From: Candidatus Latescibacterota bacterium
GTDB lineage: Bacteria > Latescibacterota > UBA2968 > UBA8231
Assembly: GCA_965203175.1 (NCBI GenBank)
Contig: OZ241867.1
Location: 1,344,001-1,408,000, forward strand
DNA: 64,000 nucleotides
Direction: 5' to 3'
Shown here one piece after another: positions 53,127 to 64,000 of the stretch. Position 1 is the first letter of the stretch; the number at the start of each line of letters is the position of its first letter. The notes under the pieces are model-generated. The model made no database searches and was not told the DNA's origin. It was given only the letters and a program-made list of their open reading frames with translations. The translations under genes and the position numbers were made by a program.

Positions 53127-55571
53127 ATGGCTTTGAAAAAGTCCCAACTCTACTCCTCGCTGTGGCAAAGCTGCGACGAGTTACGTGGCGGCATGGACGC
53201 CTCGCAGTACAAGGACTACGTCCTGACGCTGCTGTTTATGAAGTACGTCTCGGACAAATACGCTGACGATCCGTACCCGCTCATTGAAGTTCCACCCGGC
53301 GGCAGCTTCGCGGATATGTCAAACCTCAAGGGCGACAAGGAGATCGGCGACAAGATCAACAAGATCATCGGTCAGCTCATCGAGGCCAATGACCAGCTCA
53401 AGGGCGTCATCGACCAAGCTGACTTCAACGACGAGAGCAAGCTCGGCACAGGCAAGGAGATGCAGGACCGACTCTCGAAGCTGGTCGCTATATTCGAGGG
53501 GCTCGACTTCCGCGCCAACCGGGCCGAGGGCGACGATCTGTTGGGCGATGCCTACGAATACCTGATGCGGCACTTTGCGACCGAGTCAGGGAAGAGCAAG
53601 GGGCAGTTCTATACGCCGGCCGAGGTCTCCCGCATTATGGCACAGGTGGTTGGGATCGGCTCGGGCACCCAACAGGATCAGACTATTTACGATCCGACTT
53701 GTGGCTCTGGCTCGCTCTTGCTCAAGGCTGCGGACGAAGCGCCGCACGGCATTACCGTTTACGGCCAGGAGATGGACAACGCCACCTATGCGCTGGCACG
53801 GATGAACATGATCCTGCATGGCCATGAGACCGCTGAACTTTGGCGCGGCAACACCTTGGCCGCTCCGTACTTCAAGAACCCGGACGACCGCCTTAAGACC
53901 TTTGACTTTGCCGTCGCTAATCCGCCTTTTTCCGCCAAGGCTTGGTCCAGCGGCCTCAATCCAGACCACGACGAGTACGGGCGCTTCGAATACGGCATCC
54001 CTCCGACGAAAAACGGTGACTACGCCTTCCTTTTACATTTAATTGCGTCGCTCAACAGCAAGGGCAAAGGCGCGATTATCCTGCCGCACGGCGTGCTGTT
54101 TCGCGGCAACAAGGAGGCGGACATCCGCAAAAAGCTCATCCGCCAGGGCTTCATCAAGGGCATCATCGGCCTGCCGGCCAATCTGTTCTACGGCACTGGC
54201 ATCCCCGCCTGTATCTTGGTTCTCGATAAAGAGAACGCCCACGCTCGTAGCGGTATCTTCATGATCGACGCGAGCAAGGGCTTTCTCAAGGACGGCAACA
54301 AGAATCGCCTGCGCGCACAGGACATCCACCAAATCGTCGATGTGTTCAACCGGCAGACTGAGTTGTCGCGCTATTCCCGCATGGTGCCGGTGGCTGAGAT
54401 CGCTAGTCCGGCTAACGACTACAATCTGAACATTCCGCGCTACATTGATTCCAGCGAATCGGAAGACCTGCACGACCTCGACGCGCATTTGCACGGCGGC
54501 ATTCCCGACCGCGATCTCGACGAGCTCGGAACCTATTGGGATGTCTTCCCTTCGTTGCGCCAAGCGTTGTTTGTCGGCAACGGACGGGCGGGCTACAGCG
54601 AGGCTCGCGTTGAGACGCCGCAGGTGAAGGCCGCCATTCTCGGGCATGGGGAGTTCAAGTCGTACGAGGCGCGGGTCGCGGTCGTTCTCGACGGTTGGTG
54701 CAAGACGCACGAGCCGGTTCTCAAGGGGCTGGAGATAGACGCCAATCCCAAGGACATCATCCACACTCTGGCGGAGGATCTGCTGGCGAGTTTTGCCGAC
54801 TTGCCGCTGCTTGATCCGTACGACGTGTATCAGCGGCTGATGGACTATTGGGACGAGGTGATGCAGGACGATGTGTATCTCATTACTGCGGACGGTTGGG
54901 AAGAGGCAGTCAAGCCGCGTGGGATCATTGAGGACAAAGAGAAGAAGATCAAGGAGACGCCGGACCTGACTGTCAAACGCAGGAAGTACAAGATGGACCT
55001 GATTCCTCCGGGGCTGATCGTCGCGCGTTATTTCGCTGATGAACAGGCCGCTGTCGAGGCGCTACAGGCCAAGCAGGAGGCCGCAGCCCGCGAACTGGAA
55101 GAGTTCGTCGAAGAGCACACTGGCGAGGAGGGCTTGCTGGAGGATGCGGTCAACGACAAGGACAAAGTCACCAAGGGCGGCGTGACGGAGCGGCTCAAGG
55201 CTATCCGGTACGAGCCGGAGAGCGACGAGGAACGCGATGCCCTCAAGCATTGTAAAAGTCTGATTGAGGGCGAGGCTAAGGCGGCTAAGGCCGTCAAGGA
55301 GGCCCAAGCCCGCTTGGATGAGCAGGTGCTGGCCCGCTACGGCGTGCTCACTGAAGCCGAGATCAAGACGCTGGTGGTTGAGGACAAGTGGTTTGCGAGC
55401 ATCCGGGGTGCTATCGAAGGTGAGGTGCAGCGGTTGACACAGCAGCTCGCCGGGCGGGTGAAGGAGTTAGAAGAGCGCTACGCCCGTCCGCTGCCGGAGT
55501 TGGAGCGGGAGGTGGAGGTGTTTGGTGATAAGGTCGAGGAGCACTTAAAGAGGATGGGGATTTCGCTATGA
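53127..55571 (+). CDS. hsdM: Type I restriction-modification methyltransferase subunit
   Basis: LWQSCDELRGGMDASQYKDY, GQFYTP, YDPTCGSGSLL, ANPPF, PHGVLFRG, YNLNIPRYI. Confidence 0.95.
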   Translation: MALKKSQLYSSLWQSCDELRGGMDASQYKDYVLTLLFMKYVSDKYADDPYPLIEVPPGGSFADMSNLKGDKEIGDKINKIIGQLIEANDQLKGVIDQADFNDESKLGTGKEMQDRLSKLVAIFEGLDFRANRAEGDDLLGDAYEYLMRHFATESGKSKGQFYTPAEVSRIMAQVVGIGSGTQQDQTIYDPTCGSGSLLLKAADEAPHGITVYGQEMDNATYALARMNMILHGHETAELWRGNTLAAPYFKNPDDRLKTFDFAVANPPFSAKAWSSGLNPDHDEYGRFEYGIPPTKNGDYAFLLHLIASLNSKGKGAIILPHGVLFRGNKEADIRKKLIRQGFIKGIIGLPANLFYGTGIPACILVLDKENAHARSGIFMIDASKGFLKDGNKNRLRAQDIHQIVDVFNRQTELSRYSRMVPVAEIASPANDYNLNIPRYIDSSESEDLHDLDAHLHGGIPDRDLDELGTYWDVFPSLRQALFVGNGRAGYSEARVETPQVKAAILGHGEFKSYEARVAVVLDGWCKTHEPVLKGLEIDANPKDIIHTLAEDLLASFADLPLLDPYDVYQRLMDYWDEVMQDDVYLITADGWEEAVKPRGIIEDKEKKIKETPDLTVKRRKYKMDLIPPGLIVARYFADEQAAVEALQAKQEAAARELEEFVEEHTGEEGLLEDAVNDKDKVTKGGVTERLKAIRYEPESDEERDALKHCKSLIEGEAKAAKAVKEAQARLDEQVLARYGVLTEAEIKTLVVEDKWFASIRGAIEGEVQRLTQQLAGRVKELEERYARPLPELEREVEVFGDKVEEHLKRMGISL

Positions 55572-56453: not shown

Positions 56454-56665
56454 AAGCGAATAGATTTATCTGATTCTAAAACAAGAAGTTACATCAAACA
56501 GAAGAGTGTTAAGTGGGAATTGGGAAACAGAAAAAATTGAAAGCGGAGGAAGGGTGAACGGCAATTGCGGGAACAGTGGATGAGCATCAAGTCAAAATGG
56601 ACGAGGTAATAAACGATAGTTATATTTTTGCACCAATAAATAATATGAAGGAGGACATCAACATC

Positions 56666-56902
56666 ATGCCAGACCGTTATGTAACGAAGCATCCAGAAGG
56701 GTGGTCAGTGAAAGCACCGGGTGCCGCACGCGCAAGCAGCGTTCATGGGACGCAGCGGGAGGCCGAGGCGGCGGCGAAACAGATCGTGGCTAATCTTGGC
56801 GGCGGTGAGGTTCGTATCCAAGGACGCGATGGCAAGTGGCGTGATTCGGACACGGTCCCGCCGGGTAACGACCCGAATCCGCCACGCGACAAGAAGCACT
56901 AA
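56666..56902 (+). CDS. DUF2188 family small protein
   Basis: GWSVK..GA.RAS....TQ.EA...A...GGEVRI.GRDG..R. Confidence 0.8.
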   Translation: MPDRYVTKHPEGWSVKAPGAARASSVHGTQREAEAAAKQIVANLGGGEVRIQGRDGKWRDSDTVPPGNDPNPPRDKKH

Positions 56903-56923: not shown

Positions 56924-57874
56924 ATGAGAATATTCATTTCATATTCGCACAAAGACCAAGCAGTACTGGAGCGGCTACATACCCATTTGGCTCCCCTTCA
57001 GTCTGAAGGGCTTATTGATACATGGTATGATCGCCAAATTCTGGCGGGTGGGAGGGTCGACGAGGAGATCGGCAAAGAACTTGAGTCCTGCGATCTCTTC
57101 CTGATGCTTGTCAGTCCTGATTTCCTAGCGTCTGACTATTGCGTCAATCGTGAAATGAGGCGAGCGCTTGAGCGCCATAGGGACGACGCGGCGCATGTTG
57201 TACCAATTATCGTCGAGCCCTGCGATTGGCTTTCTTCGCCACTAAGTGAACTCAAGGTCCTACCACTTGATGGGGAACCTATTAGCGAGTGGCCAAACCC
57301 AAACAACGCCTATCTCGATGTAGTCAGGGAACTTCGGCGTATTCTTGAAACTCGTAAGGCCGCTGTGCCTCCTATGGGACATGCTACGTTCTCCGAGGAG
57401 ACTAATGAAACGCGACCTGTGGCTTCCCGTTATAGGGTACAGCAAGACTTCGATGATATAGATCGTAGTGAGTTCCGAGAGACCGCGTTTGCGACTATCT
57501 GCGATTACTTCCAGCAGCAGATTGCCGAGATCAATACGGACAGCAAATTACGCGGGCGTTTTGTGCCCCGGGGGCCGAGTTCGTTCGGATGCACAATCGT
57601 CAATAGGGCACGTGAGTTGAACCGTGGTACGGCGCACATCACTGTACATCGCGGAGACGGTGCCCCTGGGCTTGGCGACATCTACTACTCGTTCTCGGAA
57701 AATGCCGCAGCCAATACTGCAAGTGGCATGCTCTACATTGAGTCGGACAATTACGAAATGTATCTCAGCAGTATGATGAACTTCGGCAGTGGGCGGGAAC
57801 GGCTCACTCCGGAAGAAGCGGCAGAGTGCTTGTGGGCTGATTTTATCGAGAAGGCAGGAGTTTCTTTGGGCTGA
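56924..57874 (+). CDS. TIR-domain protein with an unknown C-terminal domain
   Basis: IFISYSHKD, WYDRQILAG, LVSPDFLASDYC..REM (catalytic-position Glu), VVPII. Confidence 0.88.
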   Translation: MRIFISYSHKDQAVLERLHTHLAPLQSEGLIDTWYDRQILAGGRVDEEIGKELESCDLFLMLVSPDFLASDYCVNREMRRALERHRDDAAHVVPIIVEPCDWLSSPLSELKVLPLDGEPISEWPNPNNAYLDVVRELRRILETRKAAVPPMGHATFSEETNETRPVASRYRVQQDFDDIDRSEFRETAFATICDYFQQQIAEINTDSKLRGRFVPRGPSSFGCTIVNRARELNRGTAHITVHRGDGAPGLGDIYYSFSENAAANTASGMLYIESDNYEMYLSSMMNFGSGRERLTPEEAAECLWADFIEKAGVSLG

Positions 57875-58103: not shown

Positions 58104-59392
58104 ATGAATAGCGAGCAAGGGACAACGGGCAGCACCCTTGGAGGCGGACGCCGTGTGCCCGTGGAACCTGTTCCCGCCGGCTACAAGCGCACCGAAGTGG
58201 GCGTAATTCCGGAGGATTGGGAGCGTTCGAGCGTACATGCCATTGCCTCATCGACGCGCAACGCGATCGTTGGTGGTCCCTTTGGATCTGACCTCGTGTC
58301 CAAGGACTACGTGGCTCATGGCGTTCCGGTTATTCGTGGCCAGAATATGAGCGGCCAGTGGGTTTCGGGCAGTTTTGTTTTTGTTACGCCAACGAAAGCA
58401 AAATCACTCGAAGCGAATCTAGCGCATCCTGGAGACATTATCTTTACGCAACGAGGAACGCTTGGCCAAGTAAGCCTCGTTCCGGACAAACCCTTCAGCG
58501 CTTACTTGGTCTCCCAGAGCCAGATGAAGCTTTCGGTAAACCGCAAGGTGGCTGATCCGCTCTTCCTCTTCTATTTTTTTACAAGCTACGAACAGCAGAA
58601 ATCGATTCAGGGCAGGACGATTCAGACGGGAGTTCCGCATATTAATCTCGGAATTCTTCGTGAGATGCCCGTTCGACTTCCGCCATTAGCCGAGCAACGC
58701 GTCATCGCCGAGGCGTTGTCGGATGTGGATGGGTTGCTCACGGCGTTAGAGGCGCTGATCGCCAAGAAGCAGGCCGTCAAGCAGGCCGCCATGCGGCAAC
58801 TCCTCTCTGGCAAGACTCGTCTGCCGGGGTTTAGTGAGGCGTGGGAGACGAAGCGGATTGGCGACTTACTCTATTATGAACGACCAGATCGCTACATTGT
58901 GCAATGCACAGAGTACAGCGATTACGGCAATGTTCCAGTATTGACCGCAAACAAGTCGTTTGTTTTGGGCTACACCGACGAAGATTTCGGTATCTGTACT
59001 GATACTCCTGTTATCGTTTTTGACGATTTTACGACCGATTCAAGTATGCAACGTCTCCATTCAAAGTAAAGTCGTCAGCGATCAAGCTTCTCCGCGCCCG
59101 TCAGAATCAAGCACATCTTAGGTACGTTTTTGAACGTATGCAGTTGATTCGCTTCCCGTTGGGCGATCATAAGAGATACTATATATCGGATTATCAAAAC
59201 ATTGAGTTGGCCGTTCCCGGTTTCGGTGAACAACAGGCTCTTTCTTCAGTCCTCTCCGAAATGGACGCCGAGATCGCCACGCTGGAGCGACGCCGGGACA
59301 AGATTCGCGCCGTCAAGCAGGGCATGATGCAGCAGCTTCTCGTCGGTCGGGTGCGGCTGGTCGAACCAGACTTAGATCGTACGAGGAGTTAA
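58104..59392 (+). pseudogene. hsdS: Type I RM specificity subunit, frameshifted near 59042
   Basis: GYKRTEVGVIPEDW, PPLAEQRVIAEALSDVD, KQAAMRQLLSGKTRLPGF. After FDDFTTDS the expected KY...PFKVKSSAIKLL continues in another frame to KQGMMQQLL.GRVRL. Confidence 0.88.
59307..59350 (+). repeat. hsdS 3'-end direct repeat, left copy
   Basis: 39 of 44 nt match 63728-63771. Confidence 0.85.
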
Positions 59393-59468
59393 AGTCAGTC
59401 TCGCGAAAATGAGTCATCTTTACAGATCACACATGATGCTGTAAAAACAGACACTTGGAGGTGTGTTG

Positions 59469-60422
59469 ATGTCCAAGGACCTGAAGAGTCAGCAGGAGCA
59501 GGGTACCACCAGTATTAAGAACCGAGACTTTCCGAGCCTATACCAGAGTGCCGACAAAGCGTCACTTTCAGCACAACGACGTTATCTTTGTTTGCAGAAG
59601 AGCTATATCGGTTGTCTTATTTTGGGGAGCGTTGGTGCTGCCCTTGCGACGATAGTTCCGGTCGTAGCCGTCAAGTGGACTCACATTGTCTTGGCGATAG
59701 TTCTGGTAACTGGCGTCGTTCTCACTTGGGTATCCCGAGTACGTCGAGACGACAAGGTGTGGTTTGGCTGTCGCGCCATTGCTGAGTCCACAAAGACCGC
59801 TACATGGCGATTCATGATGAAGGCTGCACCTTTCAAAGATGACAGCATCGCTAGGCAGTCATTCATTGACCAGCTTCGACTAATACGAGAGGAGAGGCAT
59901 TTCAGTTCACACGATTTGGCGCAAAGCTTGGATGCAAACACTCAGTCTATTAGCGATTTCATGGATAATGTGCGACAGAAGCCCTTGAATAAACAGCGGA
60001 ACCTATATCTTGAGTCGAGACTTCGCGATCAAAAGGCTTGGTATTCAAATAAAGCCAAGTTCAATTCAAAGAAGGAATCTTGTTGGTTCTGGGTGGTTTT
60101 GGCACTACATGTGGTCGCCATTGCTTTTGCAATTATTCAGGCTGGTTCAGGTGGCTTACCGGTAAACATGGTTCCATTTTTGATGACCTGCGCTGCTTCT
60201 GCTATCGCATGGAGCCATATGAAGCGCTACGGCGAGTTAGCTCAGACCTACTCACTCTCTGCACAGGAGCTGAGAGACCAAGAAGCGATTGCCTCGGATA
60301 TAACGGAAGAGGCTGACTTCCTCGCACTTGTGGAGCAAGTCGAGGAGACCATTTCTCGTGAACATACCATGTGGTGTGCGCGCCGGAATGTGATAATCAG
60401 ACCAACCGACAAGGGAAACTAA
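59469..60422 (+). CDS. Tandem SLATT/DUF4231 four-TM effector
   Basis: GGAGG RBS; two TM hairpins; W...RAIAESTKT..WRFMM; Y...RLRDQKAWY..KA; ELAQTY; VEETISREHTMW. Confidence 0.82.
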   Translation: MSKDLKSQQEQGTTSIKNRDFPSLYQSADKASLSAQRRYLCLQKSYIGCLILGSVGAALATIVPVVAVKWTHIVLAIVLVTGVVLTWVSRVRRDDKVWFGCRAIAESTKTATWRFMMKAAPFKDDSIARQSFIDQLRLIREERHFSSHDLAQSLDANTQSISDFMDNVRQKPLNKQRNLYLESRLRDQKAWYSNKAKFNSKKESCWFWVVLALHVVAIAFAIIQAGSGGLPVNMVPFLMTCAASAIAWSHMKRYGELAQTYSLSAQELRDQEAIASDITEEADFLALVEQVEETISREHTMWCARRNVIIRPTDKGN

Positions 60423-60423
60423 C

Positions 60424-60825
60424 ATGGCTAAAAGGAAGATATTCGTGAGTTATGACTACGACAACGATAGGTATTACAAGAATCTACTCTTGGCATGGGA
60501 TAAGAACCGCGAATTCGATTTCGGCTTTAGTGATCAGTCCGCTGATGTGTCCATCCAGAGCACTAACGTAGTCGCCATCAAACGCGCGATTTCAGCCAAG
60601 ATCAATGCCTCTACTTACTTCCTGTGCCTTGTTGGCGAGAAGACCAGCAAGAGCTATTGGGTTGCATGGGAGATCGACAAGGCTAAGGAATTAAGAAAAA
60701 AGCTTGTTGCTGTGAAGATTTCGAATAGGAATGTGACTCCAAACGGACTCTTGAATGCCGGGGCATCGTGGGCTATGTCGTTCTCATTCGACGCCATCAA
60801 AGACGCCATCGAAGGCGCTTATTAA
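60424..60825 (+). CDS. ThsB-like stand-alone TIR protein (MTH538/DUF1863)
   Basis: KIFVSYDYDND, IKRAISAKI, LCLVGEKTSKSYWVAWEIDKA (catalytic-position Glu). Confidence 0.85.
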   Translation: MAKRKIFVSYDYDNDRYYKNLLLAWDKNREFDFGFSDQSADVSIQSTNVVAIKRAISAKINASTYFLCLVGEKTSKSYWVAWEIDKAKELRKKLVAVKISNRNVTPNGLLNAGASWAMSFSFDAIKDAIEGAY

Positions 60826-60844: not shown

Positions 60845-61837
60845 GTGACTAAGAAAATAGCCATGGCAATAGATCGAAGCAGGAACCTATACATCGCGCA
60901 GACAGCCCTTCCTATACCATGCTTTTTTCCATCGGTTTCGAGCGTTAAGACAAACCTGATGCCCGTTGATTATGTAGAGCTTCTCGTTGCAGCCGGTCAT
61001 TCGCTCTTTCTGGTATCCGCCTATGACATTGCCCATTGCACCGATGATCAGCGCCCGCGTATGGATGCCGCGCTGACGAAAGGTAAAGAACACGATGCCG
61101 TGATCCTTATGGACAGCGGGAATTACGAAAGCTTTTGGAAAGACGACAAAGACTGGCAACCTGACAGGTTCCATGAAATTGCTGGTTCTAGCCATCATCA
61201 TCTCTGTTTCTGCTACGATAACCAGCAGCCGCCCAGCACCTCAGAGTCAATTGCCGAAGACGTAGTGGCCAGTGTTATCCGAGATCAGAAACACGCCCTC
61301 GAAACCGTAGCTCCGATAGTCCATGGGGACACAGCATTGCTATCAGATGCGGCCCGTAGAACGGCGGAGCAACTTTACCCCCTACTCTTGGCCGTCCCGG
61401 AACGTGAGCTTGGAGAAGGCATTATCGAGCGAACCCGAACAGTAAGGAAAATCCGAGAGGCGCTTGATACGCTAGAGGTATATTGCCCTCTTCATCTGCT
61501 CGGCACGGGGAATCCGCTTTCGATTATTGCTTACGCCTTAGCTGGAGCCGATAGCTTCGATGGTCTGGAATGGTGTCAGACCGTTGTCGACCACCAAACA
61601 GGTAGGCTGTTACATTTTCAACAATGGGACTTGATCCGCGATCAGACAGAATGGGGTCGATGCCCTGTACTACCGTATGTCCAATCGGTCTTGATGCACA
61701 ATCTAGATTTCTATCGCGAGTTTATGAAAAAGTTACACGAAGCAATACATCTCGAAGACACTGAAACTTTCATTCAACAGTACGTAACTAACGAACAGGC
61801 AGATCTTCTACTCCGGGCCAGCGAAGGAAGTGAGTAA
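60845..61837 (+). CDS. tRNA-guanine transglycosylase (TGT)-like protein, Cap10-like; start at 60845 or 60863
   Basis: ILMDSGNYES, PIVHG, PLHLLGTGNP, AGADSFDG, HNL; no CxCxxC zinc motif. Confidence 0.78.
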   Translation: MTKKIAMAIDRSRNLYIAQTALPIPCFFPSVSSVKTNLMPVDYVELLVAAGHSLFLVSAYDIAHCTDDQRPRMDAALTKGKEHDAVILMDSGNYESFWKDDKDWQPDRFHEIAGSSHHHLCFCYDNQQPPSTSESIAEDVVASVIRDQKHALETVAPIVHGDTALLSDAARRTAEQLYPLLLAVPERELGEGIIERTRTVRKIREALDTLEVYCPLHLLGTGNPLSIIAYALAGADSFDGLEWCQTVVDHQTGRLLHFQQWDLIRDQTEWGRCPVLPYVQSVLMHNLDFYREFMKKLHEAIHLEDTETFIQQYVTNEQADLLLRASEGSE

Positions 61838-62534
61838 CGTGACAATGATTCGCTTTTCTCTTTCAGCTATCGAACATGCGATCCGGGATGTGTACAGCGT
61901 ACTTGACGAGTGTACTTCAGTCCCATGGAAGGAAAGTAGCGAAGACGATCTATGGCGAGAGCTTGTATTTTGTATCCTAGGTAGCCGAGTGAGGTTTGAA
62001 ACTGTCCACGCAGCGGTTGAAAGAATGGACGGTATGTGTTTGCTTTCTCGTCCACGACGAAACACACAGTTCGATCAATATGAAGAGGACACGATGACGG
62101 CCCTTTCTATGGGCTATCCATTCTATCGCGTCAGGGCTAATCAGATTCGCCGGGCAGCAGAATACCTATACAACTACTCACGGGGGTCAATTGGGGAGTT
62201 ACTGAATAGCGCTAGTGATGCTCACAGCGCGCGACGCCTTCTGACGGCTGAGGTAGTGGGTTTGGGACCCAAGCAAGCAAGCCTATTCCTCCGGAACATC
62301 GGTTATGCAAAGTCCATCGCGGTCTTAGACGTACATATTTTGACATATTTGAGTTGGATCGGTCTTGCTGAATCTTCGCTCAAATCGGTTCCGACATTAA
62401 GCAAGTACGAAGCACTGGAAGAATCTTTTATCCAACATGCCTATTCATTAGGATTCTCACCCGATCAATTCGATCTTGCGGTGTGGATTGTAATGAAAGT
62501 GGCAAAGGAGGAATCAAACGCATGGGGATCGTGA
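61830..62534 (+). CDS. 8-oxoguanine N-glycosylase/DNA lyase-like HhH protein (OGG2-type, Cap11-like)
   Basis: LWRELVFCILGS, GLGPKQASLFLRNIGY, IAVLDVHIL, YEALEE.F, FDLAVW. Confidence 0.85.
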   Translation: MSNVTMIRFSLSAIEHAIRDVYSVLDECTSVPWKESSEDDLWRELVFCILGSRVRFETVHAAVERMDGMCLLSRPRRNTQFDQYEEDTMTALSMGYPFYRVRANQIRRAAEYLYNYSRGSIGELLNSASDAHSARRLLTAEVVGLGPKQASLFLRNIGYAKSIAVLDVHILTYLSWIGLAESSLKSVPTLSKYEALEESFIQHAYSLGFSPDQFDLAVWIVMKVAKEESNAWGS

Positions 62535-63118
62535 CTTTGGTATCTGGAGGATTCGATTCAACTCTTATGAGTCTTATGGCTCATGAGGAAGGGATCGCAC
62601 TATTCCCTCTCTTTATCGATTACGGGCAACTCGGAGTAAACAAGGAATGGTCAGCGTGTCAGCGACTTCACAAACAATTCGGTTTGCCACCGGTGACCTA
62701 TATGGATTTGTCTGGTTTTGGAAAAACAATCCCGAGCGGACTTACAGATAGCAGTTTACGCATCAACGAAGATGCCTTCTTGCCAGGTCGAAATCTTCTT
62801 TTTGTGCTAGCAGGAGCGGCTCATGCCTGCCAGACTCAAGCTAGTAGCGTCGCGCTTGGTCTACTCAATCCCGCCGACCACCTTTTTCCAGATCAGACCA
62901 AGGGGTTTGTAGAAGAGTGCGAAAGGATTATCGAGATGGCAATGGGCCGGAGGATTTCTGTTCTTATCCCACTGATCGAGTTCTCGAAGAGAGATATTAT
63001 GGTGATGGCTCGTGATCGGGGGATAAAGCATACCTATTCATGTCATGCAGGTGGGGACGAACCTTGCGGAGTGTGCATAGCATGCATTGAAATTATTAAT
63101 GCAAAGGAAAGGAGGTAG
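62522..63118 (+). CDS. QueC-like PP-loop ATPase (Cap9-like)
   Basis: LVSGGFDST, IDYGQ, FLPGRNLLF, FPDQ, TYSC-x6-PCGVCIAC zinc site. Confidence 0.9.
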   Translation: MGIVTLVSGGFDSTLMSLMAHEEGIALFPLFIDYGQLGVNKEWSACQRLHKQFGLPPVTYMDLSGFGKTIPSGLTDSSLRINEDAFLPGRNLLFVLAGAAHACQTQASSVALGLLNPADHLFPDQTKGFVEECERIIEMAMGRRISVLIPLIEFSKRDIMVMARDRGIKHTYSCHAGGDEPCGVCIACIEIINAKERR

Positions 63119-63120
63119 CC

Positions 63121-63618
63121 ATGGGTGGCGGACGCAGTAGTCGCGGTTTAACCCCAGACGAATTCAGGAGTGCTGAACAACGTGCCAAAAAATCTCTGAA
63201 GGAAGGCGATGGCAAGCACAATGTCTTTATCAGCTTCTCCTCGGATGATCTCGATGAAGTTAACCTGTTACGTGGTCAGGCTAAGAACGAAAACAGCAAC
63301 ATTGAGTTCAACGACCGGTCACTGAAAAAGCCGTTCGACAGTAAGAAAGCCGACTATATAAAACGAGGCATTCGGGACCGTATTCGTCAATCCTCCGTTA
63401 CTGTCGTGTATGTATCGGACAAAACCGCCGATAGTAAATGGGTGGACTGGGAAATACGAGAGAGTCTTGTCATGGGGAAAGGTGTCGTCGCCATGCACAA
63501 GGGCGACACCCCACCCAGACGTCTCCCAAAGGCTATCACCGACAACAATATTCCGGTTGTACCGTGGAACCAAGAACAGTTGGCAAAAGCCATTGAGACT
63601 CAGTTCGAGAACCGATGA
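63121..63618 (+). CDS. ThsB-like TIR protein with a Gly-rich N-terminal extension (MGGGRSSRG)
   Basis: AGGAGG RBS; NVFISF, YIKRGIRDRIRQSSVTVV, SKWVDWEIRES, KGVVAM, VPWN. Confidence 0.85.
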   Translation: MGGGRSSRGLTPDEFRSAEQRAKKSLKEGDGKHNVFISFSSDDLDEVNLLRGQAKNENSNIEFNDRSLKKPFDSKKADYIKRGIRDRIRQSSVTVVYVSDKTADSKWVDWEIRESLVMGKGVVAMHKGDTPPRRLPKAITDNNIPVVPWNQEQLAKAIETQFENR

Positions 63619-63820: not shown

Positions 63821-64000
63821 ATGAGCGAGAGCTAGAACATCGAATGGAAAGAGACGTGGCGGGACGAATACCTAAAATGGGTCTGCGGCTTCGCCAATGC
63901 TCAGGGCGGCGTACTGGAAATCGGCAAGAATGACCGGGGTGAGGTGGTCGGAGTGAAGGACGTTCTCCGACTGCTCGAAGAAATTCCCAATAAGGCCCAG
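63821..64000 (+). pseudogene. AlbA_2 (Schlafen-like) domain gene with TAG at codon 5; runs off the window
   Basis: MSES*NIEWKETWRDEYLKWVCGFANAQGGVLEIG.ND.GEVVGV. Confidence 0.75.

Follow-up and report, generated by a model that had tools for sequence, protein, structure and literature searches.

The stretch analysed here, referred to as the window, comprises 64,000 nucleotides (nt) of the genome of a Candidatus Latescibacterota bacterium (assembly GCA_965203175.1, contig OZ241867.1, positions 1,344,001 to 1,408,000) and contains an operon of six packed, co-directional genes. These encode a SLATT protein, a first TIR protein (TIR1), a Cap10-like TGT-family protein, a Cap11-like OGG glycosylase, a Cap9-like QueC-family protein and, as the last gene, a second TIR protein with an N-terminal tail (TIR2). 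All six open reading frames (ORFs) are intact. With a probability of roughly three in four, we interpret this operon as a Thoeris-type anti-phage system with a SLATT effector, in which the Cap9/10/11-like trio would serve a ThsB-type TIR that is deazaguanylated at its N-terminus. The operon is a further, bacterial, and very well conserved case of a kind that has already been predicted in print. Yirmiya et al. (bioRxiv, December 2025, 10.64898/2025.12.03.692087) describe Thoeris operons with cap9, cap10, and cap11, and their AlphaFold3 models of ThsB with Cap10 (ipTM 0.79) and with Cap9 (ipTM 0.62) are CD-NTase-like, 'suggesting a similar mechanism'. A first-pass annotation, made from the DNA letters of the window, had proposed TIR2 as the acceptor of a QueC-dependent deazaguanylation and, in addition, as a new class of substrate. 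The comparative data and the published rules favour the former, while the novelty of the substrate class has to be given up in view of the work of Yirmiya et al. A full-text literature search retrieved no experimental test of a TIR as a deazaguanylation substrate.

In the type IV class of CBASS, the anti-phage signalling systems based on cyclic oligonucleotides, a deazaguanine tag (NDG) is attached to Gly2 of the CD-NTase CdnD. Wassarman et al. (10.1101/2025.04.06.647259) give the acceptor motif as M(G/S)G(G/S)GG, describe the roles of Cap9 and Cap10, and report that defence is lost with the CdnD variant G2D. In the QatABCD system the MGTS tip of QatB is essential (PMC13279940). The statements that the first-pass annotation had treated as established, namely the removal of Met before Gly, the tagging of the CD-NTase glycine by Cap9, and the analogy to QatC and QatB, agree with the published passages.

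The TIR2 gene extends from 63121 to 63618 and encodes 165 residues; the interval 62522-63200, to which the proposal had been attached, contains all of the QueC-like gene but no more than the initial 80 nt of TIR2. The QueC-like gene ends with a TAG at 63116-63118, which is followed by CC and the ATG of TIR2 at 63121. The gap of two nt, the AGGAGG ribosome-binding site, and the start MGGGRSSRG, all noted before, can thus be read directly in the sequence. Because a TAA at 63097-63099 is in frame with TIR2 and no ATG, GTG, or TTG is found between this stop and 63121, the start is fixed at MGGGRSSRG. A mis-called start was considered and is rejected by the in-frame stop, the ribosome-binding site, and the conserved spacing of 1-3 nt described below. 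TIR2 matches the Pfam family ThsB_TIR (PF08937, 8.9e-25) with residues 36-126 and the PADLOC model ThsB (5.7e-17). In the AlphaFold2 model, which was built with 48 homologues and has a mean pLDDT of 79, residues 1-10 have pLDDT values below 50, residues 12-28 form a helix, and the first strand comprises residues 33-38. Since the Pfam match begins at residue 36 and the first modelled strand at residue 33, the TIR core is preceded by about 32 additional residues, close to the 30 residues estimated earlier. TIR1 aligns to TIR2 only from residue 31 of TIR2 on (33% identity over 96 residues) and its own ThsB_TIR match starts at residue 7; it therefore has no extension, as had been noted from its start MAKRKIFVSY. 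The best Foldseek matches of the TIR2 model are a Bacillus cereus TIR (8fz9, E 6e-10, 33% identity) and EcThsB, and W107, V108, W110, and E111 do not vary among 48 sequences. A sequence search of the PDB with the first 35 residues of TIR2 gave no match at E <= 10, and the tail and helix therefore have no detectable sequence likeness to the N-termini of CdnD or QatB. The tip M-G-G-G-R-S fits the acceptor motif at positions 1-4, not at positions 5-6; the consensus of the TIR family, MGGGGGGG or MGGGSGGG, fits it completely.

The proposal that TIR2 is the acceptor is well supported by a comparison of TIR loci with and without a QueC-like gene. A database search yielded 1495 relatives of TIR2 at E <= 1e-5, the best 120 of which are 73-97% identical to it. 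Of these 120, M-G is the start of 113 (MGG in 105 of them), and in one more a GTG start precedes GGGG. The remaining six comprise two proteins starting with MAGSG, three shorter ones starting with MTPDE, whose starts have apparently been called about 10 residues in, and a longer one with an internal MGGGGGGG. Scanning one genome per species resulted in 69 loci encoding a TIR2 relative, which were searched with the six proteins of the window, the N-termini of the TIRs being taken from stop-to-stop frames. QueC is located directly upstream of the TIR in 53 of the 69 loci and the TIR start could be evaluated in 52 of these, one locus (L054) being scored from the second Met, so that the gap has the usual 2 nt, and another (L002) from a GTG start. 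Gly2 is present in 51 of the 52 linked loci; the N-terminus is MGG in 50 cases, MGN in one (L017), and MAG in the remaining one (L004). In 44 of the 52 loci, 1-3 nt separate the QueC stop from the TIR start. The family consists of two clades of about 50% identity whose extensions differ (GRGLTPDEL... and GGLFSSDI...), and the Gly tip is kept in both. The other 16 loci have no QueC match. In three of them (L028, L033, L063) the TIR is cut or fragmentary at its N-terminus and two (L058, L065) have no start codon where one would be expected, which leaves 11 callable loci. Nine of these do not start with M-G, two possibly do (L055 with MGSEDAGG, and L056 if its GTG start is used), neither of them being Gly-rich there, and a conserved Gly motif is found in none of the 11. 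The difference in Gly2 between linked (51/52) and unlinked (2/11) loci corresponds to a Fisher p of 2e-8, not corrected for shared ancestry. The nearest unlinked TIR relatives, from two Poribacteria (L027, L029; 62-64% identity in the best tblastn segment), contain a remnant of the extension (…RG.LT…) behind a different, Gly-free N-terminus and are not accompanied by Cap genes. Judged by these sequences, loss of the helper genes seems to have gone along with loss of the Gly tip. The acceptor proposal thus passes the comparison that the first-pass annotation had suggested, Gly2 being conserved in the QueC-linked TIRs, if not strictly exclusive to them.

The content of the 52 linked loci is similarly uniform with respect to the helpers: TGT is found in 50 and OGG in 48, next to QueC, which is present in all 52 by selection, and a SLATT match is found in 42. 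TIR1 is encoded in only 10 of the loci, two of these ORFs being short; a recount gave nine, one ORF having no start near the expected place. The SLATT effector has a length of about 310-320 residues and two domains in loci resembling the window, and a length of about 165 residues in the distant clade and in L003, L031, and L036. Other proteins of the operon were considered as acceptors as well. The N-termini of SLATT, TGT, and OGG do not contain a conserved Gly2 across the loci, and the QueC-like protein starts with MG in the window but with MS, VS, MA, MP, or LR in many other loci.

Some loci deserve separate mention. In L030 (5248-6333), on a Latescibacterota chromosome, the reading frame of the QueC-like gene continues into that of the TIR, which it joins at about TIR residue 53, with a shared 'AK' at the junction. 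Because the first 52 or so TIR residues are missing from this fusion it was left out as not evaluable; lacking the Gly tip, helix, and first strand, it is likely a dead copy. The TIR of L027 adjoins AbiU2-like and type I specificity genes. L055 to L058 and L061 represent a sister subgroup of TIRs with about 50% identity and variable N-termini; in L056 and L061, the two of these loci whose upstream gene was scanned, a TPR-S/MAP3K_TRAF_bd gene precedes the TIR in place of QueC. Three viral contigs also encode relatives. One (L078) has the order TGT-OGG-QueC followed by a TIR starting with M-M-G-G, another (L079) encodes an unlinked, tail-less TIR, and the TIR of the third (L077) starts with MGGGGGGG and is cut at the contig end. 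L078 is an 82.7 kb IMG/VR contig classed as viral, on which the SLATT gene is found on the opposite strand from TGT-OGG-QueC-TIR. The TGT-OGG-QueC-TIR module may travel on a prophage or another mobile element.

Given the tip of TIR2 itself, it could be argued that the operon is decaying in this genome and that tagging no longer works here because the tip has drifted (RSS for GGG). The tip is indeed atypical, MGGGR being found in only two of the best 120 relatives, and neighbouring defence genes show signs of damage, hsdS being apparently split and an AlbA_2 gene carrying a TAG in frame. However, next to the intactness of all six ORFs, Gly2 to Gly4, the proposed docking helix, and every catalytic residue that was checked have been kept, and the 97%-identical relative with the same tip represents nine member sequences on eight contigs. 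In addition, the data published on CdnD (10.1101/2025.04.06.647259) demonstrate a requirement for G2 and for the complete motif, but none that is specific to G5-G6. Decay of the operon is accordingly very improbable.

The QueC-like protein belongs to the QueC family (Pfam QueC 1.1e-33, PADLOC QueC 1.2e-27), and its best sequence match in the PDB is Cap9 (9nto, 1.5e-12), narrowly above canonical QueC. According to the survey of the QueC family in PMC13329287, Cap9 proteins have a length of about 185-200 residues and share a signature that is also present in the 198 residues of the window protein: the SGGxDS loop, RN, a Y/F-x-D base site, and zinc-binding cysteines. The residues S18/S23, R86, Y115, and D117, which Wassarman et al. 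name for Cap9, correspond to S8/S13, R90, F122, and D124, and the SGGxDS loop (S8-G9-G10-x-D12-S13), R90-N91, F122-P123-D124, and C174/C182/C185/C188 vary little or not at all among 48 sequences. The TGT-like protein matches the TGT models of PADLOC (8.1e-25) and Pfam (3.6e-10), and Cap10 (9ntn) is its sole sequence match in the PDB. Cap10 is also the top Foldseek match of its AlphaFold2 model (pLDDT 94.5; E 3.3e-14, TM 0.67-0.69), with the tRNA TGTs behind at 7.8e-11. D73/S74, D122, H226, and D248 of Cap10 correspond to D84/S85, D119, H211, and D233, which are invariant in 43 sequences; in Cap10, D73/S74 and D122 read the base together with K154, and D248 and H226 form the catalytic pair. Judged by these alignments, the QueC-like and TGT-like proteins retain most of the catalytic residues named for Cap9 and Cap10. 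The OGG-like protein matches Pfam Ogg-HhH (2.4e-27); its helix-hairpin-helix motif G144-x-G146-P147-K148 and D167 are invariant in all 47 sequences, and K148 and D167 would be the Lys and Asp that glycosylases of this kind use in catalysis. With respect to the supply of the base, the genome (6.58 Mb in one contig) encodes two canonical QueC proteins, one of them adjoined by a QueE-like gene (833285-834570 in genome coordinates) and the other located at 3193150-3193764, as well as a QueD/PTPS protein (4378348-4378758). Because QueC, QueE-like, and QueD genes are present, the bacterium can probably make 7-carboxy-7-deazaguanine (CDG), the substrate of Cap9.

It could also be possible that what the QueC-like enzyme does to the TIR tip differs in chemistry or outcome from the NDG of CBASS, either because another carboxylated base or small molecule is attached or because the tip serves as a non-covalent regulatory plug. 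QatC and QatB would provide a precedent, because QatB has the same type of Gly tip and the QueC active site is essential there, and the authors, who were unable to reconstitute the reaction, call it unresolved (PMC13279940). In addition, the YxDC motif has become FPDQ in the QueC-like protein and the His preceding this motif in Cap9 is unaligned. However, the residues by which Cap9 holds NDG and ATP (D117, R86, SGGxDS) are invariant in the QueC-like family, the invariant base-pocket residues D84/S85 and D119 of the TGT-like protein are sensible only if a 7-deazaguanine-like base is bound, and CDG can probably be made from the genes of the genome. A chemistry different from that of CBASS is therefore unlikely.

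How the QueC-like enzyme might recognise TIR2 was modelled by co-folding the two proteins with an alignment of 48 rows each and with three controls. The pair reached an ipSAE of 0.68 (0.50, 0.68, and 0.74 in the single runs), while the best of the three controls scored 0.00; the level of the pair is attained by 58 of 80 solved complexes and by 2 of 110 mismatched pairs. The contacts of the runs agree to at least 66% and the partners have pLDDT values of at least 74. On TIR2 all confident contacts are made by the helix and its flanks (residues 9-34), and those on the QueC side comprise residues 1-3, 16-26, 106-111, and 146-162. In Cap9, the joint mutation of three residues of the cleft abolished CBASS defence (Wassarman et al., 10.1101/2025.04.06.647259). 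Two of these, M29 and L104, correspond to M19 and S109 of the QueC-like protein and are found in the predicted interface, and the third, S135, corresponds to G142 outside the list of confident contacts. The helix-in-cleft mode known from the published work is recovered in the predicted complex, here for a partner whose fold is unrelated. The first-pass annotation had suggested modelling QueC with the TIR N-terminus, and the model has given the docking of the helix but no confident placement of the Gly tip.

The families of the helpers allow another explanation, in which QueC, TGT, and OGG form a module for 7-deazaguanine modification of DNA or tRNA, similar to Dpd, beside an independent TIR-SLATT system, the Gly tip being a mere flexible linker. 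By their Pfam names, TGT and OGG belong to families whose usual substrates are nucleic acids, and the locus is part of a restriction-modification island. Neither QueD, QueE, FolE, nor a Dpd partner was found by Pfam among the six operon genes, however, and the best structure and sequence matches are Cap9 and Cap10 instead of a tRNA TGT or canonical QueC. The tight spacing of QueC and TIR genes in 44 of the 52 loci, the joint loss of Gly tip and Cap genes in the nearest unlinked relatives, and the QueC-TIR2 model, which beats its controls, also argue against an independent TIR. We therefore reject this explanation, whose chance is minimal.

Several points weigh against a deazaguanylated TIR2 serviced by the trio. 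The support consists throughout of homology, synteny, and models; what is shown is gene content, conservation of residues, and synteny, and all of the chemistry is inferred. TIR2 has R and S instead of G and G at positions 5-6 and fewer glycines than the family consensus MGGGGGGGRG. Gly2 is not strictly limited to linked loci, given the possible M-G starts in L055 and L056; Gly-Gly is absent in the two linked loci L004 (MAG) and L017 (MGN); and the Fisher p overstates the independence of the loci because they are related. The positions of H110 and C118 of Cap9 are changed, the aligned residues of the QueC-like protein being L115 and Q125. A counterpart of K154 of Cap10 was not located in the TGT-like protein, so that five of the six named residues are mapped; the profile alignment of the TGT family to Cap10 is unreliable in its middle part and wrongly placed the DSG motif, which had been brought into register by the pairwise alignment. 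In the complex model residues 1-8 of TIR2 are outside the confident contacts and the tip is not seen in the active site, and part of the score may reflect likeness because a complex of the QueC family (Cap9-CdnD) has already been solved and is in the PDB.

As in the Thoeris operons with cap9/10/11 genes, an effector gene is adjacent to the TIR. The SLATT protein contains two domains (Pfam SLATT_3, 8.7e-32, residues 24-179; SLATT_1, 6.2e-32, residues 182-304), and TIR1 matches Pfam ThsB_TIR (1.2e-19) and PADLOC ThsB (4.3e-17). The following sequence of events can be proposed. Methionine aminopeptidase removes Met before Gly, and it would expose Gly2 of the 165-residue TIR2. The TIR2 helix would, by homology, dock on the QueC-like enzyme, which would then ligate the base to Gly2. 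If CBASS is taken as a guide, the TGT-like protein would bind the tagged tip in its base pocket and hold or prime TIR2, and it may transfer the tagged TIR2 through its catalytic Asp; the OGG-like glycosylase would counteract it. On infection the TIR would make an NAD-derived signal, possibly canonical cyclic ADP-ribose (cADPR) as in TIR-SLATT systems, and this signal might cause the SLATT protein to breach the membrane. TIR1 would be an optional second ThsB. For type VII TIR-SLATT systems, signalling with canonical cADPR is stated by Yirmiya et al. (10.64898/2025.12.03.692087).

A more far-reaching scheme would regard the Gly tip and docking helix as a portable handle through which the Cap9/10/11 trio controls signalling enzymes of unrelated folds. 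The TGT-like protein would transfer tagged TIR2 onto a glycosidic target, for example nucleic acid, the OGG-like protein would remove it, and TIR1 would be an untagged second sensor partnering the tagged TIR. A switch of transfer and removal would fit because the OGG-like gene is near-obligatory here (48 of 52 loci), compared to about one-third in CBASS. We consider this scheme as a whole unlikely.

Table 1. Features of the operon in coordinates of the window
Feature	Position	Strand	Remarks
SLATT two-domain membrane effector	59463..60422	+	319 aa; start possibly ATG two codons in
TIR1, ThsB-type TIR without tail	60424..60825	+	133 aa, MAKRKIFVSY
Cap10-like TGT-family protein	60863..61837	+	324 aa from ATG 60863
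Cap11-like OGG / HhH-GPD glycosylase	61830..62534	+	start uncertain: GTG 61830 or ATG 61845
Cap9-like QueC-family ligase (predicted)	62522..63118	+	198 aa, MGIVTLVSGGFDS
AGGAGG ribosome-binding site of TIR2	63110..63115	+	5 nt before ATG 63121
TIR2 N-terminal tip MGGGRSSRGL	63121..63150	+	predicted disordered; Gly2 = proposed acceptor
TIR2 helix, residues 12-28	63154..63204	+	proposed QueC-docking helix, AlphaFold2 model
TIR2 core, ThsB-type TIR, W110-E111 motif	63217..63618	+	Pfam ThsB_TIR

For the TGT-like gene a longer ORF variant exists, which starts at 60755 and would overlap TIR1. The operon is part of a defence island within a type I restriction-modification locus, with HsdM at 53127-55571 and HsdS pieces at 58104-59392. 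The hsdS gene is apparently split into an ORF with a single Methylase_S domain (58104-59069) and a separate ORF of 84 residues (59138-59392) that resembles the conserved C-terminal end, and it may be broken. Downstream of the operon, an AlbA_2/Schlafen-type gene (63821-64000; Pfam 1.8e-07 on 63836-63997) continues past the end of the window. Its fifth codon is an in-frame TAG (63833-63835), so it is either a pseudogene or starts elsewhere. Another ThsB-type TIR, of 316 residues (56924-57874, PADLOC ThsB 6.5e-67), starts 21 nt after the gene of a DUF2188 protein (56576-56902, Pfam 1.9e-18), and the two may constitute a second, separate TIR pair; DUF2188 is listed as a putative Thoeris effector by Yirmiya et al. 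(10.64898/2025.12.03.692087).

If the tag is real, deazaguanylation would not be peculiar to one type of CBASS but would be a general means to prime or restrain immune signalling enzymes. The TIR2 family is large (the 1495 relatives above) and very conserved and, to judge from the record titles, spread across many phyla. TIR2 would be convenient for finding the step after tagging because it is a small, well-behaved TIR of 165 residues. Since the idea is already in print as a prediction, the present analysis is of value for the evidence it adds in support and for its defined test set rather than as a discovery.

The closest known systems are the cap9/10/11 Thoeris operons of Yirmiya et al., which also combine a ThsB-type TIR and an effector with homologues of cap9, cap10, and cap11, and for which binding of the TIR to Cap9 has been predicted in silico. 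The near-universal Gly tip with its docking helix, the near-universal OGG-like (Cap11) gene, and the optional tail-less second TIR go unmentioned in the text consulted of that work, whose supplementary tables may list the family. In the QueC-family survey (PMC13329287), Cap9-cluster genes adjoin a CD-NTase in 67% of cases, and neither 'TIR' nor 'Thoeris' occurs in its main text. With QatABCD the operon shares a QueC-family enzyme and a partner whose disordered N-terminus ends in Gly2, which is essential in QatB. In contrast, QatC carries large extensions and its site has been remodelled, QatB is all-helical, and QatABCD encodes neither TGT, OGG, nor TIR. Type VII Thoeris similarly pairs a ThsB-type TIR with a SLATT effector (ThsH), but its core consists of two genes, to which three ancillary genes and the tailed TIR are added here. 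The likeness to type IV CBASS extends to a helper trio of the same families, to an acceptor that begins with Met-Gly-Gly, has a disordered tail, and docks on the QueC-like enzyme by its first helix (the tail and the docking here by prediction), and to the membrane effector, since SLATT-type effectors are also found in CBASS. Unlike in type IV CBASS, where Cap11 is present in about one-third of the operons (10.1101/2025.04.06.647259), OGG is encoded in 48 of the 52 loci. In addition, the six operon proteins, which were the ones scanned, gave no Pfam or PADLOC match to the CD-NTase family, and the signalling enzyme is instead a TIR of unrelated fold.

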